Positions 28 through 37,793 of a stretch of DNA of 64,000 bases are shown here, in pieces (the stretch's first letter is position 1; every line of letters starts with the position of its first letter). The stretch is from Escherichia coli (lineage in GTDB: Bacteria > Pseudomonadota > Gammaproteobacteria > Enterobacterales > Enterobacteriaceae). Made by a program: the position numbers and the translations under genes. Under the pieces are notes generated by a model. The model was not told the DNA's origin. It worked only from the letters and a program-made list of their open reading frames with translations, and ran no database searches. Location of the stretch: the NCBI RefSeq assembly GCF_022846255.1, contig NZ_AP025682.1; one strand, given 5' to 3'.

Positions 28-1200
28 TTAGCCAGCGTTAGCTTTTACGATATCGTCGATCAGTTTATTGACAGGTGCCAGGCTGATTTCACGCGCGGTA
101 CTTACCGCGACCGGTGTGGAACGTACTTTGTTTGCCAGTACCTGACCGTCACGGTTAGTGGTATTGACACTCACCAGCGTGGATAAACCGATACGCAGCG
201 GGTATTGCTCCAGCTGTTTCTGGTCCAGTTCAATACGCACAGGCAGACGCTGAACGACTTTGATCCAGTTACCGGTGGCGTTTTGCGCCGGAAGCAGTGA
301 GAACGCGCTACCTGTGCCCATATCCAGACCAACCACTTTACCGGTGTATTTCACATCATCGCCGTAAATATCGGTGGTGATGGTGACCGGTTGACCGATA
401 CGCATATTGGCAATCTGCGTCTCTTTAAAGTTGGCATCCACCCACATATTGGTGGCTGGAACGACCGCCATCAGCGGCGTCGTTGGGCTAATTTGCGCCC
501 CAGGCTGTACCGCGCGGCGGGAGACATAACCGGTCATCGGACTGACAATACGGGTACGCTCCAGCGCCAGCCAGGCGTTACGTACTTCGGTGGCAGCCTG
601 TTGTACGGCAGGCTGATCTTCCAGTTTCGTCCCCAGAATCATCGCCTGATTGGCATTGTATTGTTGAATAGCGACGTCCAGTTGCGCCTGGGCACTGGTG
701 ACGGCGTCGCGGGCGTGTTGCAGCTCTTCGCGACCAATCAGGTTGGCATTGCCCAGCGGCACACGGCGGTTGTAGTCGCTTTGTGCTTTCGCGAGGGCGA
801 TTTTTTGCACCTCAATATTCGCCTGCAACTGTTTGCTGTTAATCATCAGCTGGTGGGTTTGGCGAACGCTGGAAGCCAGTGCAGTTTTTGCTTTTTCAAA
901 CGCCTGGCGAGCATCTGTCGGGTCGAGAGTGACCAGCACGTCGCCTTCTTTTACAAAATCGGTGTTATCGGCCCAGACTTTCGTCACGCTGCCAGACACC
1001 TGAGACATAATTTGAATCTGATTCCCTGCCACGTATGCGTCATCGGTTTCTTCGAAATGACGCAGTACCAAAAACCAATAAATCCCTATCGCTACGGCAA
1101 TAATTATAAAGAGCAAGGTGAGAAGGAGGAGCAGACGCTTACGTTTGCCGCTCTTCTTTACCGGTTGCTGCGGGGTTTGAGTCTCCGCATTTGCGCTCAT
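28..1200 (-). CDS. emrA: Multidrug efflux membrane fusion protein EmrA (390 aa)
   Basis: ORF-track translation matches EmrA; start set at ATG 1198-1200 (MSANAE...) with GGAG 6 nt upstream rather than the GTG 12 nt further upstream. Confidence 0.95.
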   Translation of the reverse strand: MSANAETQTPQQPVKKSGKRKRLLLLLTLLFIIIAVAIGIYWFLVLRHFEETDDAYVAGNQIQIMSQVSGSVTKVWADNTDFVKEGDVLVTLDPTDARQAFEKAKTALASSVRQTHQLMINSKQLQANIEVQKIALAKAQSDYNRRVPLGNANLIGREELQHARDAVTSAQAQLDVAIQQYNANQAMILGTKLEDQPAVQQAATEVRNAWLALERTRIVSPMTGYVSRRAVQPGAQISPTTPLMAVVPATNMWVDANFKETQIANMRIGQPVTITTDIYGDDVKYTGKVVGLDMGTGSAFSLLPAQNATGNWIKVVQRLPVRIELDQKQLEQYPLRIGLSTLVSVNTTNRDGQVLANKVRSTPVAVSTAREISLAPVNKLIDDIVKANAG

Positions 1201-1326
1201 ATTGTTCTCCACGATCTTCTTAACTCATCGGCTGAGCCGACCTGCTTGCCAAAAAGGCCAGCATGTTACGATGCTGGCCGGTTATTTTTTCTTTTATAAA
1301 TCTGGATTTTTGAGCGAGATGACGCG

Positions 1327-1857
1327 TTAGCTCATCGCTTCGAGAACCACACCGTCCTGTTCCATCTGGTCGAGGCGGGAGAGCAATTTGCGGGTGATTT
1401 GCTCGAGCTGGTCTTTTTCTGTTGTGCTGAGCGCGGACCAGAGTTGATGCAGGCAGTTATGCTGCGGCGGTAAAACCTCGCGCAAAAACTCGTGACCTTT
1501 TTCCGTTAATTGCAGATGCAGGCAGCGGCGATCGTTATCGCTTTCACGACGTTCGATCCAACCGCGTTTTTCCAGTTCATCGGCAATACGCGTCGCGTTG
1601 GTACGGGATGATCCAAGTGCACAACTCAATTCAGAAGGCTGAATACTGTGGTTTTCCTGAGACTCCAGCGTAATCAACGCCATAAACAACGTCTCGTTAA
1701 TCCCCTGAGCCTTCAGCATTTTATTGCGGTTTTCCAGCAGCTTGCTTTGCATATGCATGCAAAGACGGGTCAGAAGGATCTCCTGATAAGGAAAATCTTC
1801 GTGGCGGCTGGCGCGAAATTTTAGCATTTGTTCAATGGGCGTAAACGAACTATCCAT
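1327..1857 (-). CDS. emrR: MarR-family repressor EmrR/MprA (176 aa)
   Basis: Full-length translation recognised as EmrR; lies immediately upstream of emrA on the same strand. Confidence 0.95.
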
Positions 1858-1947
1858 TTGGGTATGACCTCATTAATTTCAGCCGATATAGTAACGACAG
1901 TGACAAATAAAGTAAATGTATTGTTTTAGAAAAATGATTCTTGTGGG

Positions 1948-2283
1948 TTATATAATCGCCATCACTTTCCAGGCGAGCCCATAGGCCAGCGCACTAAGCA
2001 GTGTTGGGATGATAATGCTGCGTGTTTTATAGAAACTGGCACCCAGTACCGCGAAGCCGACCAGTGTGGGCACGAAACGGCGTGTATCGTGCATCACTTC
2101 TGGTGCGGTAGAGACAACCAGCAGAGCGCATATCGAGGCGATGCCAATGGTGTCGAGCAAAATACCTACCGCGCCACGTTTGGTTGGGCGGGCATTACCC
2201 ACACGCAGGCGCAGCGGCAGATAGCGGAAGCAATAATTCGCCGCGCCAACCAGTAACCCAAGCAGCAGAACCTCATAGCTCAT
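1948..2283 (-). CDS. ygaH: L-valine exporter small subunit YgaH (AzlD-like, 111 aa)
   Basis: Translation recognised; overlaps the ygaZ stop by 11 nt, as expected for the ygaZH pair. Confidence 0.9.
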
Positions 2284-3010
2284 CGGGCGCTCCTTGCCAG
2301 AATGCCTGGATTAACGCAGTGAGGCAGCCACAGACAATGCCTGCCAGAATGGCGACGGGAATAGAAAATAGCGTTACGCCTGCAAGGGCACCAACTAACG
2401 CTGCGGTAACGCAAAGAGATTGTTTGCGCTGGAAAGAGGCGAGCAGGAAACTCATAAAGAGTGCCGGAAGCATAAAACCTAATGCTGCTTCAACGGCGGG
2501 ATAACCTTGCAGCAAGCCGCTGCCGGAGAATGCCCCTATTACCGTACCAAATACCCACGATGACCATGAACTGAAGGCAATGCCGATCATCCAGTTTTCG
2601 CTCCAGCGGCGATTATTGCGTACCAGTTTTGCGGTTGCGGCGGCAAAAACCTCATCCGTCAGGCCAAACGCCCACAGGGCGGTTTTCGATTTTTGCAGAC
2701 GCTGAATAATACGGCTACGCAGTGACGGGCCATACAAAACATGGCGAACATCCATTGCCATGACGGTCAGTGCAGCAACCCACAAACTACTCCCGGCTGC
2801 CAGCATCGCGGTAATGACGAACTGGCTCGCGCCTGCATAAATGATGCAGGAGAAAAAAACGCTTTCGAGAGGAGAGAATCCCAGACGGGTCGCATTCAGA
2901 CCGAACGCAAAGGCCACCGGAATATAACTAATAACAATCGGTAAACTGTCTTTGCATCCTTCCATGAAGGTCGCCGAACCAGGAGCAGGCTGTGGAGTAG
3001 GGCTTTCCAT
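2273..3010 (-). CDS. ygaZ: L-valine exporter large subunit YgaZ (AzlC family, 245 aa)
   Basis: Translation recognised; polytopic membrane protein upstream of ygaH. Confidence 0.9.
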
Positions 3011-3133
3011 AGAGTGTACGCTTAACGATTGTTAATATTATAAATAGACTGAATGAATATCTTAACCTTATCAGACTGATGGGCTTCTTAACACCCTTAT
3101 AAGTGTAAAGCCACGAAAACGGTTGCTGATTGC

Positions 3134-4318
3134 TTAATTTGCGGCTTCCTGACGATGAAAACCTCGCCACCAGACCAGTAAGTTAACCAGGGCAATCGTC
3201 GCGCCAGCCAGACACACGCCAGCCCAACCGCCATGTTGCCAGGCTGAGGCTGAAATTAGCGAACCAGCGGCACCGCCAATAAAGTAGCTGGTCATGTAAC
3301 CTGCGGTCAGGCGATTACGCGCATCAGGGTGTATTCGATAAATTACCGTCTGGTTAGTGATATGCACGCCCTGCACGGTGAGGTCCAGCACCAGGATGCC
3401 GATAATCAGCGCCAGTACGGAAGTGTGACCAAACCAGATTGCCAGCCATGAAAGTAACAGCAGCAGCAGACCGAAAGTTGTGGTGTGGTGCGATTTGCCC
3501 TTATCGGCAAAACCGCCCGCCGGACGAGCGCCCAACGCTCCGGCAGCTCCCGCAAGCCCAAACAGACCAATTACACCATCGCTGTAGTTAAAAGGTGGAG
3601 CGGCAAGCAAAAAGGCCATTGAGGTCCAGAGAATGCTGAAGTTGGCAAAGGTCAGGCAGCCCAGCAACGCGCGGGTGCGCAGGATTTTATCGCTGATAAA
3701 CATGCTGAAAACAGAACCTAGCAACTGTGGGTAGTTGAGGTGGGTTTCTGATTTCATTTGTGGCAGACCACGCCATAACGCCAGCGCCATCAGTGCCATT
3801 AATACCGAAGCGACCCAAAAGACAGTTCGCCAGCCACCGAGACTCGCCAGCAATCCGGCAACGGTCCGTGCCAGCAAGATCCCCAACAGCAGCCCGCTCA
3901 TAATGGTGCCGACCACTTTGCCGCGTTTGTCCGGTGAAGCCAGCGTCGCTGCCAGCGGAACCAGAATTTGTGCCACGACTGAGAATAAACCGGTTAATGC
4001 CGTACCGAGGAGCATCATCGCCAGCGACTGACTGCTGGCAGTGATTAACATGCCGCCTGCTGCCAGTAAGGTCATCGAGACAATCAGGCGGCGGCGTTCA
4101 AACATATCACCGAGGGGAACAAGAAACAGCAGACCTGCGGCATAGCCCAACTGCGCGGCGGTAACAATAAAGCCTGCCGAACTGGCGGAAAGGGAAAAGT
4201 TACGCGCGATGGTGTCGAGCAATGGCTGGGCGTAATAGTTACTGGCTACCGCCAGACCGGTGGCGATAGACATCAGCACGATCAGCGCCGGGCTAATCTC
4301 ATGATTAGGTTTAGTCAT
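3134..4318 (-). CDS. ygaY: MFS transporter YgaY, intact 394-aa reading frame
   Basis: Uninterrupted ORF of 394 aa with multiple hydrophobic segments; position between ygaZ and proX matches ygaY. Confidence 0.8.
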   Translation of the reverse strand: MTKPNHEISPALIVLMSIATGLAVASNYYAQPLLDTIARNFSLSASSAGFIVTAAQLGYAAGLLFLVPLGDMFERRRLIVSMTLLAAGGMLITASSQSLAMMLLGTALTGLFSVVAQILVPLAATLASPDKRGKVVGTIMSGLLLGILLARTVAGLLASLGGWRTVFWVASVLMALMALALWRGLPQMKSETHLNYPQLLGSVFSMFISDKILRTRALLGCLTFANFSILWTSMAFLLAAPPFNYSDGVIGLFGLAGAAGALGARPAGGFADKGKSHHTTTFGLLLLLLSWLAIWFGHTSVLALIIGILVLDLTVQGVHITNQTVIYRIHPDARNRLTAGYMTSYFIGGAAGSLISASAWQHGGWAGVCLAGATIALVNLLVWWRGFHRQEAAN

Positions 4319-12017: not shown

Positions 12018-12033
12018 ACACAATATATAGCAA
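12018..12033. promoter_or_regulatory. Putative NrdR box in the nrdHIEF promoter
   Basis: ACACAATATATAGCAA, about 105 bp upstream of the nrdH start, matches the 5' 13 positions of the NrdR-box consensus as I recall it (acaCwAtATaTwGtgt). Confidence 0.35.
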
Positions 12034-12103
12034 ATAGTGGTCGAAATTACCCTGGGTATGAGCGTGACGGGGTAGGGGGATTTTTGTGATTCACCAGGCA
12101 AAA

Positions 12104-12641: not shown

Positions 12642-12986
12642 ATGTATTTACGACCAGACGAGGTGGCGCGCGTACTTGAAAAAGTCGGTTTTACTGTCGA
12701 TGTGGTAACCCAGAAAGCGTATGGTTACCGCCGTGGGGAAAATTATGTCTATGTTAATCGCGAAGCGCGAATGGGACGTACCGCCCTGGTGATTCATCCA
12801 ACATTAAAAGAACGTAGTTCAACACTGGCTGAACCCGCTTCCGATATTAAAACTTGCGATCATTACCAGCAATTTCCGCTCTATTTAGCGGGTGAACGTC
12901 ATGAGCATTACGGTATCCCGCATGGCTTTAGTTCGCGTGTTGCGCTTGAACGTTATTTGAATGGTTTATTTGGCGAAGCCAGTTAA
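12642..12986 (+). CDS. ygaC: Uncharacterised protein YgaC (114 aa)
   Basis: Translation recognised; divergent from ygaM. Confidence 0.85.
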
Positions 12987-13022
12987 AGACGCGACTGGCG
13001 ATGCCAGTCGCGAAAAGAAGGG

Positions 13023-13472
13023 TCAGGCTTTTACCTGCTGGTAACGGCTGACTTTAAACAGTCGGCGGCAATAATCGAGGAAGTAGCCATAAACCGCCCC
13101 CATCAACATCGAAACAACGATGTTTGAACTGACCGCCGCCATAATCTGATGCCAGTCTGCGCCCACCACTAACAAGATCGCCACATACACCGGTGACTGG
13201 AACGTCACATAAGCCAGGATATCCGCCAGATTTTTTATCCAGCCCGACGGGCTAACTTTGCGTGCCGCGCGCATAAACAGATCGCGGTACATACCGTATG
13301 GCCATGCAATTAAGATGTTCACCGGAATCGCTACCAATCTGGAATAAAAAGACTGTTCGAAGCTCATTCCGGAGAGGAAAACTTCAATACACATGTTCAC
13401 GACAGAACAGTAAACAACCATCGCGAACGTATCTGCAACTGCATGACGCAAGCGTGACTGCGGTGAGAACAT
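13023..13472 (-). CDS. alaE: L-alanine exporter AlaE (YgaW, 149 aa)
   Basis: Translation recognised; small polytopic membrane protein. Confidence 0.9.
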
Positions 13473-14139
13473 GCTAATGCTCCTTAATAAAAGCGTAATG
13501 GGATGTTAATGGAGATGAAAGCAGTGGATCTCATTGCCATCTGCATTTTCGCATAGCGTATATCGCTGGCTATGACTAATCAATTAGTGAAAAATTTTTA
13601 TTTAATCTGTTTTTGTAGATAAAATATTCCGTAACGGCGCGTTTTTTGTACATTGTGGATTTTTACATGCCGGTATGATTTATTTTTAATTAAATCAATT
13701 GGATATGTGTTTACCTTTATTTTCACTCATGAAGGTTTGGGGGGGAGGTAACGCTATAAGCGTAGAGAATTCGGTGTATGTAGTGATCGGGTCATTTTCA
13801 GCATTTTTTATGCCAGATAATGTACATTGACAGCAGAAAGCACCAGTGAGTGATGTTTTCTTTTATTCTGTTGAGTTGCATTTTTATTCACTTTGGTTTT
13901 GTCAGGCTTGCGGAATTAGCGAGCAGAGAGCGCCGCTCTGTTCACCAATAACCTAAATTACTCATCAAAATGGCTAATATATAATCTTGAAATTATTCTG
14001 AGAGTTTCAGAAAATAACAGCTGAAATAATCTCGTGCAGGACTGTAAATAGATTAAATTTTGTGGAAATATAATAAGTGATCGCTTACACTACGCGACGA
14101 AATACTTTTTTGTTTTGGCGTTAAAAGGTTTTCTTTATT

Positions 14140-14544
14140 ATGTCCGTAATGTTACAAAGTTTAAATAACATTCGCACCCTCCGTGCGATGGCTCGCGAAT
14201 TCTCCATTGACGTTCTTGAAGAAATGCTCGAAAAATTCAGGGTTGTCACTAAAGAAAGACGTGAAGAAGAAGAACAACAGCAGCGTGAACTGGCAGAGCG
14301 CCAGGAAAAAATTAGCACCTGGCTGGAGCTGATGAAAGCTGACGGAATTAACCCGGAAGAGTTATTGGGTGATAGCTCTGCTGCGGCACCACGCGCTGGT
14401 AAAAAACGCCAGCCGCGTCCGGCGAAATATAAATTCATCGATGTTAACGGTGAAACTAAAACCTGGACCGGTCAGGGCCGTACACCGAAGCCAATCGCTC
14501 AGGCGCTGGCAGAAGGTAAATCTCTCGACGATTTCCTGATCTAA
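14140..14544 (+). CDS. stpA: H-NS paralogue StpA (134 aa)
   Basis: Translation recognised; preceded by a roughly 660-bp AT-rich regulatory region. Confidence 0.95.
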
Positions 14545-14590
14545 TTACTGAGGCCGGATGCCGCTGCTATGGCGCGTCCGGCGTCGCTTC

Positions 14591-15115
14591 TCAAGCTCGT
14601 TGGTTCCACGGCATCTTATCTAACAATCTTGCCATTCCACAAAAACCACTAATTCCTGCAAACAGTAACCCAGCACCAACAAAGCCGCTTAATAAGAAGA
14701 AAACGCTATTTACGGTATAACCCAGTACAACGCCGATTAATATTAAACCACCCGCGGCGATCTGCACCTGGCGCATTAACGGCAAGGGTTGGGATTTATT
14801 TACCGCTACTGGCAATCCTGCTTTTTTCCAGCCATCAATCCCATCTTCGAGTAAAAAGATTTCTGCGGGGGCGGCAATCGCTGCTAATTTATCGGCGTTA
14901 TTACTGGTGCGTTTACCTGCCTGGCAGTGGAATATAATTTGCTCGCGACGTAATTTAGGCGGAAGACCTGACTGTTCCAGTACGGATAATGGAGCCAGAT
15001 CTGCTTCAGGAATATGTTCACGAAGATATTCATCAGCATCACGAATATCGATTAACTTTGCGCCGCGTGCGATTAATTCTTGTGCATCATGCGGCGAAAT
15101 GGTTGTCAAAGCCAT
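14591..15115 (-). CDS. ygaP: Rhodanese-domain thiosulfate sulfurtransferase YgaP (174 aa)
   Basis: N-terminal rhodanese domain with catalytic Cys (..FHCQAGKR..) and C-terminal membrane anchor. Confidence 0.9.
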
Positions 15116-15424: not shown

Positions 15425-15606
15425 AGTTATTTAAGTAATTTCTAAATTAAGTAAACTCTAAACTAAGAGTGCAACATATACCAGCATCAGCAGCGTAAAT
15501 GAGAGTAAAAGCGTAAGCTGAAACTGGCAGGCTCCGATAAAATTACTACGCTTAAGAGATAAAATCTCTTTTTAAACAATGAGTAATTTTCTTATAGGGA
15601 GTACAT

Positions 15607-24204: not shown

Positions 24205-24332
24205 TAATGTCATAGGGAGTCGCGACTCCGTTGCGTATCCTTTTTTGTCTCCTCACCGTCTGGTCGGTGTCCTGCTGAGACTTATAACTTCCTGTTTTTG
24301 TTGGTGTAGTCCTTACACCGTCCAATCATGAT

Positions 24333-24695
24333 TGGTGGAGCTGGCGGGAGTTGAACCCGCGTCCGAAATTCCTACATCCTCGGTACTACATGCTTAGTCA
24401 GTCTTTACATTCGCTTGCCAGCTGCGGACGGACACGCCACTAACAAACTAGCCTGATTAAGTTTTAACGCTTCAACCCCAGGCAGGGCTTCCACGCGATC
24501 TCTTTTGGGTTTGACCTCTCTTGATCCCCGTCCTAAGAGCGGAGGCTAGGGAGAGAGGGCTCTAAGCAGGTTATTAAGCTGCTAAAGCGTAGTTTTCGTC
24601 GTTTGCGACTATTTTTTGCGGCTTTTTACGAGGCCAACCGCCCCTCGGCATGCACCTTGGGTTTCGCAAATCCCGTCGAATCCAGAATCAGCCCC
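24333..24695 (-). ncRNA. ssrA: tmRNA (SsrA, 363 nt)
   Basis: Minus strand runs GGGGCUGAUUCUGGAUUCGACGGG ... GGUUCAACUCCCGCCAGCUCCACCA; tag reading frame 24574-24606 encodes ANDENYALAA. Confidence 0.97.
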
Positions 24696-36566: not shown

Positions 36567-37793
36567 TTATCTCACCAGCTTTTCGGCACGCTGGTGTTTG
36601 GCCTGATACATATTGTGATCGGCAAGCTCTTGTAAATTTTCCGCAGAGGCGTGCTCAATAGTCATCGCGTAACCAATGCTTAATGTCATGGTAGTTTGAT
36701 GGCCATTATGAAGATCAAACGGGAGATTAAAAATTTGTGTCAGTGCTGAGCATATCTGCTGCACTTCAGATTCCGACTGTACATCATAGAGCACCATAGC
36801 GAATTCATCGCCGCCCAGGCGGTATGCTTTATGTCGCAGCCCGCCAAATTCAGCTAACCGTTTTGCTATTTCAATCAAGACTCTATCGCCCGTCGCATGA
36901 CCCCAGGTATCATTGATATATTTGAAATTATCGCCATCAAGAAATAGTAACGCCGACGTTTTTCGGGCATCGGAATTGTTCATCAACGTGTTGATGCCGC
37001 TACGAAACGCTGCGCGGTTAGCCAGCCCGGTTAATGGGTCATGTAGCGCGGTACGTAGAAGCTGCGCATTTTTGGCCTGTAAACGAAGCTGCCACTCTTC
37101 CATTTCATCCAGCAGACTGTTGAAGTCGAGAGCGAAGCGGTGAAACTCAGCGATACGTTCTTCCGAAACTCGTCGGGAAAAATTGCGGTTAGAACGCACA
37201 TCATGTACGACATCGGTGATATTTTTCAGCGCTTCCACCAGGCCATTGTGCAAATGGCGGGTGAGGGTAATTGCGATGCCTGATGCCAGCAGAATACAAC
37301 CGGTCAGGACAGCGAGCGAAAACCAGATAAAATGGCTGATTGAACTGTCGCGAGCAGTTAAGCGTACTTCGCCAATGGTTTCACCATTGTGGCGAATCGG
37401 CTGAATGATGGGGGCAGGGAAGAGCCAGTGGCTTATGAAATTGCTGAAAGTATCGCCTGGTTCCTTATGGGTGTAATGCCAGGATGCCAGAATATTTTGC
37501 TGCTTATCACGCACTTCTGCAGTTGAAAATTGGCCTTGCTGGCCCAGCGCTGCCAGTGTTTCAGTTGCTGCAGGGCCATCGGCAAAAACGACAGCTGCTT
37601 CCAGACTGTAAGTCATTGTTGCTGCTGTCAGTGCCAGGTTTTTTTGCGCGTATTGTTTCAGGGTTAGCACTGACGTCACGGAAAGCAGCAGCCAGATCAG
37701 CGTCATAGTGATAAATATGCTGGTCATGCTGATGTTGCGTAATGCTCTTTTAAACGTGGGGCGCTTATGAAGAGAATTATCGTTATCCATCAT
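36567..37793 (-). CDS. dgcN: Diguanylate cyclase DgcN/YfiN (408 aa)
   Basis: Two transmembrane segments, periplasmic domain, HAMP and C-terminal GGDEF domain (RLGGDEF). Confidence 0.9.

Follow-up and report, generated by a model that had tools for sequence, protein, structure and literature searches.

The divergently transcribed genes alaE, for an L-alanine exporter (13023–13472, minus strand), and stpA, for the H-NS paralogue StpA (14140–14544, plus strand), face each other in Escherichia coli across a long stretch of AT-rich DNA, in which nothing is annotated in the RefSeq record of K-12 MG1655 or in strain AR_0017. The locus is a textbook H-NS/StpA target. Does this stretch serve only the two genes that it separates, or does it hold a gene of its own? 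We addressed the question in a window of 64,000 nucleotides of E. coli DNA (contig NZ_AP025682.1), to which all positions refer unless K-12 coordinates are given. With alaE reaching up to position 13472 and stpA starting at 14140, the gap spans 13473–14139 and measures 667 bp. Its GC content is 0.348, compared with 0.51 for the window, and it is the most AT-rich 667-bp stretch there; only 0.085% of 667-bp windows in the 64 kb are as AT-rich, and each of them overlaps the gap. In the equivalent 64 kb of AR_0017 it ranks second by length among 56 annotated gaps (median 64 bp), after an 812-bp prophage junction. The longest ORF inside it has 43 codons (13699–13830, TTG start), and a mechanically called 105-aa ORF antisense to stpA enters it by 19 bp only. 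The gap is therefore as unusually long and AT-rich, and as devoid of ORFs of at least 60 aa, as a first-pass annotation of the sequence had claimed, its estimate of about 660 bp included.

The region belongs to the species core. With 13300–14300 as the query, 5416 of the 5426 complete E. coli genomes gave a match over at least 80% of the length, once per genome, and the order ygaP, stpA, spacer, alaE is common to the window and K-12. Compared with K-12, the window strain diverges by 2.1% over the surrounding 4.5 kb, by 0.2% in alaE and by 1.2% in stpA, and differs at 28 positions of the gap, 22 of which fall in its centre. The closest complete genome in the same search, at 99.8% identity, was AR_0017. 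Elsewhere in the equivalent region a P2-like prophage of about 34 kb adjoins ssrA in AR_0017 but is missing from the window, where the prophage flanks overlap by 46 bp (24332–24377), probably the core of the attachment site. AR_0017 also has a 1.9-kb insertion between ygaM and nrdH (near window 12028–12102), absent from the window and K-12, that contains genes for a PLP-dependent aminotransferase and a carboxymuconolactone decarboxylase.

Much of the experimental answer has been given by others. Ziegler and Freddolino (mBio 2023; PMC10127797), using methods that include ChIP-seq, lacZ reporters, qRT-PCR and atomic force microscopy (AFM), presented the stpA-alaE region as an example of a double Lrp ChIP-seq peak. 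In minimal medium two strong Lrp peaks were seen at the alaE promoter, with slight repression of alaE, while in medium containing leucine, isoleucine and valine one peak was kept and alaE was strongly activated. The upstream member of the pair lies within the ygaP ORF (14591–15115, minus strand, outside the gap), where it cooperates with the intergenic peak; when it was deleted, Lrp-dependent activation of stpA fell more than fivefold. Under AFM, Lrp bridged a stpA-alaE DNA fragment, and leucine abolished the bridging (PMC10127797). Genomic SELEX placed sites for RNA polymerase holoenzyme and for H-NS in the stpA/alaE divergent spacer (Shimada et al., PLoS One 2014; PMC3946193), and the stpA promoter has been summarised as Lrp-dependent in minimal medium and H-NS-silenced (Fitzgerald et al., Sci Rep 2015; PMC4668568). 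The Lrp peaks, the bridging, the effect of the ygaP site and the binding of H-NS and RNA polymerase are thus results of others; what the present analysis adds is a base-level map of the parts of the spacer that are constrained. Taking both together, we conclude, with a probability of roughly 85%, that the gap is a shared bidirectional control region of alaE and stpA and holds no separate gene.

A scan for AlaE, with one genome taken per species, yielded 80 loci, in 58 of which stpA divergently adjoins alaE. Where the two are adjacent, the spacer measures 475–789 bp and has a GC content of 0.31–0.43, all 53 non-Escherichia species included; in 20 species of the alignment set stpA is not the neighbour of alaE. 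Comparison with 59 orthologous spacers divides the gap into three zones: about 230 bp on the alaE side, a centre of about 335 bp, and about 100 bp on the stpA side. Most of the variation in spacer size comes from the centre, which ranges from about 145 to 450 bp among genera. On this profile constraint falls on the 230 bp adjoining alaE and on the 100 bp adjoining stpA, and the centre is largely free.

The alaE-proximal zone (13473 to about 13705) is strongly conserved across genera in all 80 sequences, and because the conserved blocks are kept in the 20 loci where stpA is not the neighbour, they belong to alaE. The conservation profile points to a core promoter at 13555–13583 on the minus strand, made up of a −35 hexamer TTGATT (13583–13578; TTG conserved) and a −10 hexamer TACGCT (13560–13555; TAnnCT conserved), with a probable start site near 13548. 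The 17-bp spacing between the hexamers is fixed in the 80 Enterobacteriaceae sequences, again including those without stpA next door. The match to consensus is weak, as might be expected of a promoter that depends on an activator. From the −10 hexamer down to the Shine-Dalgarno sequence AAGGAG (about 13480–13485, minus strand), which is itself conserved, the sequence is poorly conserved, and this fits a predicted alaE 5′ untranslated region of about 76 nt (13473–13548, minus strand).

Upstream of the putative −35 hexamer lies a near-invariant A/T block, TAAATAAAAATTTTTCAC (13587–13604, minus strand; about −39 to −56 of the putative start), the best-conserved stretch of the spacer across genera. 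An UP element, or an Lrp site close to the promoter, would occupy this position. Four further conserved blocks in the alignment (13609–13630, 13641–13650, 13661–13668 and 13692–13702) could be where Lrp or H-NS contacts the alaE promoter. A palindrome at 13555–13567, AGCGTATATCGCT, was considered as a hairpin or operator and rejected: its arms are lost in other genera, and it overlaps the putative alaE −10 hexamer.

Two observations in other genera concern the same zone. Citrobacter amalonaticus S646 carries an insertion of about 115 bp directly upstream of the alaE Shine-Dalgarno sequence; it is G+C-rich and internally palindromic, much like a MITE or small enterobacterial repeat. Once the insertion is subtracted, the Lrp-type palindrome described below is back at its usual distance of about 340 bp. 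In Kosakonia and relatives that lack stpA (six loci and others), the gene upstream of alaE is often an ORF of about 70–76 aa with the motif MFSVGD(I/V)VQPR, oriented like alaE and lying about 450 bp from it, so that alaE keeps a long upstream region even without stpA.

The conserved 230 bp might instead be a long structured mRNA leader of alaE, such as an alanine-sensing riboswitch or an attenuator, in place of promoter DNA. For a promoter region the conservation runs unusually deep, and the best-match alaE promoter given by Shimada et al. for K-12 (GTGATA-17-TCTAAT; PMC3946193) lies about 230–250 bp upstream of the ATG and would produce such a leader. However, those hexamers are altered to GTGAAA...TCCAAT in the window strain, and the conserved −35/−10 pair with its fixed spacing lies downstream of the blocks. 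The blocks are A/T tracts, not paired G+C-rich segments; minus-strand fold z-scores run from −0.15 to −2.0; and RNAalifold found only a trivial 5-bp helix between the Shine-Dalgarno sequence and the ATG, both in the alaE leader (59 sequences) and over the 235 nt preceding alaE (80 sequences). Lrp, moreover, explains the induction of alaE (PMC10127797). We therefore regard a structured leader as very improbable, and read the zone as an Lrp-responsive promoter with its upstream sites.

The centre (13706–14040) behaves differently. It is a fast-evolving AT-rich spacer without a conserved ORF or a fold signal, and outside Escherichia it cannot be aligned. Divergence between the window and K-12 reaches 6.6% here, about three times the divergence of the surrounding 4.5 kb, and in 3887 of 5419 E. 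coli genomes (72%) the centre is only 90–95% identical to that of the window. Between Escherichia species it is 42–46% divergent, compared with 15–18% at alaE third-codon positions, a ratio of about 2.5. Some substitutions in the centre are clustered multi-base changes (13708–13710, 13785–13788 and 13873–13875). Relaxed constraint, a locally raised mutation rate or regulatory selection could each be reflected in this polymorphism.

Within the centre lies a palindrome, CAGCAT-TTTTT-ATGCCA (13799–13815). The SELEX consensus for Lrp, reportedly obtained by Cui et al. in 1995, has half-sites YAGHAW/WTDCTR, and the half-sites of the palindrome, CAGCAT and ATGCCA, match these arms at 11 of 12 positions, but with a spacer of 5 bp instead of the canonical 3. 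Of 60 orthologous spacers, 14 contain such a pair of arms, with at least 11 of 12 positions matching, at 300–380 bp from the alaE ATG, compared with a mean of 0.38 and a maximum of 3 in shuffles, a control that overstates the significance because the 60 spacers are phylogenetically related. The spacer of the palindrome is 5 bp in Escherichia, Salmonella and Citrobacter, and the canonical 3 bp in Klebsiella, Raoultella and Yokenella; its position is kept across genera whose flanking sequence cannot be aligned. On the basis of this positional conservation the palindrome is likely to be the core of the intergenic Lrp ChIP peak, and it offers a candidate anchor for Lrp that could be mutated. It lies about 1.0–1.1 kb from the middle of ygaP, a distance that would fit the ‘over 1 kb away’ of Ziegler and Freddolino (PMC10127797).

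Two further sequence islands in the centre are conserved in Escherichia only: AAAATGGCTAATATATAATCTTG (13967–13989) and TTTCAGAAAATAACAGCTGAAATAATCTC (14004–14032). They are invariant within the E. coli strains compared, and could be upstream regulatory sites of stpA or a secondary promoter.

The rapid change of the centre, together with the threefold range of its length among genera, might suggest that these 335 bp are functionless filler, a decayed insertion or pseudogene remnant made AT-rich by mutational drift. Yet every genus retains a long AT-rich spacer, nowhere shorter than 475 bp, the palindrome holds its position between unalignable flanks, the islands do not vary within E. coli, and published Lrp and H-NS binding falls in the spacer (PMC10127797; PMC3946193). 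Nor does the centre resemble true plasmids or phages, on which no copies of 13706–14040 were found. A mobile-element origin had been considered and was rejected, the apparent plasmid matches being mislabelled chromosomes and the phage matches a 1.7-kb fragment and a Salmonella contig. Filler is thus a most unlikely description of the centre. At the other extreme, the polymorphic centre with its palindrome may be a tunable anchor of the Lrp bridge to ygaP, its polymorphism recording lineage-specific retuning of stpA and alaE and not a mere lack of constraint; we hold this to be a speculative and rather unlikely proposal.

The stpA-proximal zone (14041–14139) hardly varies within Escherichia and is conserved in part in other genera. 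Its conservation marks out a putative proximal promoter and leader of stpA at 14062–14139 on the plus strand. The conserved promoter motif reads GTGGAAATATAAT in the window and CTGGAAATATAAT in other genera, and includes a −10 hexamer, TATAAT, at 14069–14074 (plus strand); transcription would start near 14081, giving a 5′ untranslated region of about 59 nt. Around the Shine-Dalgarno sequence, GCGTTAAAAGGTTTT (14116–14130, plus strand) is invariant in the alignment. A leader of the thermosensor type was considered for stpA and rejected, as RNAalifold found no consensus structure in the stpA leader among 58 sequences.

The first-pass annotation had drawn attention to long A/T tracts and phased A-runs, quoting an A/T string that lies at 13595–13628, and had proposed a curved regulatory region. 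The tracts are indeed over-represented: the gap has 23 A/T tracts of at least 4 bp, compared with 15.2 ± 2.5 in dinucleotide-preserving shuffles, none of 500 shuffles reaching 23. The phasing, by contrast, did not hold up, since the best power of AA/TT periodicity at 10–11.5 bp in the gap was matched or exceeded by 62% of the shuffles. Curvature was estimated with a home-made wedge model. In this model local curvature peaks at about 13580–13660, where the raised values overlap the blocks upstream of alaE, and at 13963 and 14040; the mean for the gap stands only at the 91st percentile of the window. The reading of the gap as curved DNA is only weakly supported, because the A-tracts lack global phasing.

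The annotation had also singled out an isolated G7 run. The run exists at 13739–13745 (plus strand), and its quoted context, TTTGGGGGGGAGG, lies at 13736–13748, not at 13738–13750. It is not a conserved element of the spacer: in seven strains compared, the window included, the same position reads GGGGGTG in four of the six others (K-12, ST131, strain 142 and HUSEC2011), GGGAGTG in 88-3493 and G6 in AR_0372, and it is entirely different in other Escherichia species. The G7 run is thus a lineage-specific variant of the commoner GGGGGTG, created, relative to K-12, by a T-to-G change. We considered whether it might be a phase-variable homopolymer and rejected this, as the differences among the seven strains are mostly substitutions, G6 occurs in only one of the seven, and neither of the promoters proposed here nor any conserved ORF lies at the run.

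Could the gap nevertheless hide an independent small regulatory RNA gene, expressed from AT-rich promoter-like sequence? It is long enough at 667 bp, the Escherichia-conserved islands contain a perfect TATAAT at 13980–13985, and a promoter-like site lies at 13987–14015. That site, however, is one of three found by a consensus scan, compared with 3.2 expected from shuffles, and the scan missed both promoters suggested by conservation, that of alaE and that of stpA. A search of Rfam over 12900–14700 with E-values up to 10 returned five noise matches only, and no terminator-like site was found in 13473–14139, the only one detected sitting inside stpA. The Term-seq tables of Adams et al. (eLife 2021; PMC7815308), which cover K-12 in a few growth conditions, list in their available part the stpA terminator (K-12 2798048) and an internal stpA 3′ end (2798243); among the 3′ ends listed there, none falls in K-12 2798500–2799099 and none is attributed to alaE. 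Fold energies were unremarkable, the lowest z-score in sliding 100-nt folds of both strands (58 windows) being −2.1. A hairpin-like sequence, GCAGAGAGCGCCGCTCTG (13923–13940), was rejected as a terminator, having no T-run on either strand and being absent outside E. coli. The centre is not conserved beyond Escherichia, and the curated annotation of K-12 is empty here. We consequently give a hidden small RNA very little credence.

A small protein is less probable still, whether the 33-aa ORF at 13850–13951, which has a hydrophobic N-terminal half and a charged tail like small membrane proteins but no convincing Shine-Dalgarno sequence in front and, like the 36-aa and 43-aa ORFs, is broken even in K-12, or the 20-aa upstream ORF at 13484–13546, which ends in the alaE Shine-Dalgarno sequence and has survived in E. 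coli, E. albertii and a single cryptic Escherichia clade but is lost in three Escherichia lineages and without an ATG counterpart in Kosakonia and other genera; among the ORFs of at least 10 aa inside the gap, none stays intact throughout the seven Escherichia sequences. The earlier idea of a small RNA or micro-ORF concealed in the gap thus drew no support from the Rfam, terminator, Term-seq, fold, ORF or consensus-structure analyses, and this negative result should save follow-up effort.

We return to the shared control region and to the proteins that act on it. Consensus scans do not single out the gap within the window, either for Lrp or for H-NS. The Lrp 15-mer YAGHAWATTWTDCTR, with up to three mismatches, has 84 matches in the window, compared with 78 expected, and two in the gap, which is the chance rate. 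The H-NS high-affinity motif, the 10-mer TCGATAAATT, has a single two-mismatch match in the gap (13616), and 103 matches in the whole window compared with 64.6 expected. One match to the Lrp consensus with three mismatches, GAGCAAATTATATTC, lies at 14930–14944 within ygaP, the ORF of the published distal Lrp peak, but such matches occur at the chance rate, so that it is no more than a pointer. Across the 64 kb a single site, CAGAATATTTTGCTG at 37488–37502, fits the Lrp SELEX consensus without a mismatch; it sits inside dgcN (yfiN), directly downstream of yfiR.

The first-pass annotation had assigned the gap to stpA, as a silenced regulatory region. Silencing stands, borne out by the H-NS SELEX sites and the H-NS repression in the literature cited above. 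The stpA-centred reading is nevertheless incomplete, because a third of the spacer, and the best-conserved third, is the conserved Lrp-responsive promoter of alaE; Lrp is at least as important as H-NS at this gap.

How the parts might work together can be proposed as follows. The alaE-side 230 bp would act as a weak, activator-dependent sigma-70 promoter, and Lrp bound at the A/T block and the further conserved blocks would switch alaE between mild repression and strong activation. The AT-rich centre of some 335 bp would be the platform on which H-NS/StpA filaments and Lrp are loaded, with the palindrome at 13799–13815 as a positionally conserved Lrp-type element within it. The stpA-side 100 bp would supply the −10 hexamer, the ribosome-binding site and, between them, a leader of about 59 nt. 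When cells grow in minimal medium, spacer-bound Lrp bridges to the second Lrp site, in ygaP, and stpA is activated; leucine dissolves the bridge, and H-NS together with StpA silences the region.

The divergent spacer between ygaV and yqaE (15425–15606; GC 0.319), 1.3 kb from the gap, is more AT-rich still, though only 182 bp long, and is also marked with H-NS sites (Shimada et al., 2014; PMC3946193). This suggests that nucleoid proteins bind a small cluster of sites here, made up of the two spacers and the Lrp site in ygaP.

How does the gap compare with known systems? It is an ordinary, already known regulatory region. The stpA-alaE region of K-12 (PMC10127797) is the same locus with the same gene order, 2.1% different over 4.5 kb; the window strain is set apart by its 28 spacer differences, the change that makes the G7 run among them, and the base-level anatomy proposed here comes from conservation, not from that study. 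Our findings have little import beyond annotation; Lrp-mediated DNA bridging has already been modelled on this locus in print (PMC10127797).

The H-NS/StpA-silenced AT-rich promoter regions of proU, bgl and hns resemble the gap in their low GC content and their excess of A/T tracts, as well as in the binding of H-NS in genomic SELEX (PMC3946193) and the derepression of the target in the absence of H-NS (PMC4668568). Unlike these, the gap belongs to the core genome, with 5416 of 5426 genomes carrying it; it is syntenic across Enterobacteriaceae and not horizontally acquired, and its A-tracts show no significant helical phasing.

The multi-site Lrp promoters of ilvIH, the pap switch and dadAX share with the gap an arrangement of several conserved A/T-rich blocks tens of base pairs apart with a weak promoter downstream, an Lrp that acts with or without leucine, and separated sites that cooperate (PMC10127797). 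The gap differs from them in that its best palindrome in Escherichia has a 5-bp and not a 3-bp spacer, in that the distal partner lies within the ORF of a neighbouring gene at a distance of more than 1 kb, and in that two divergent genes share the region.
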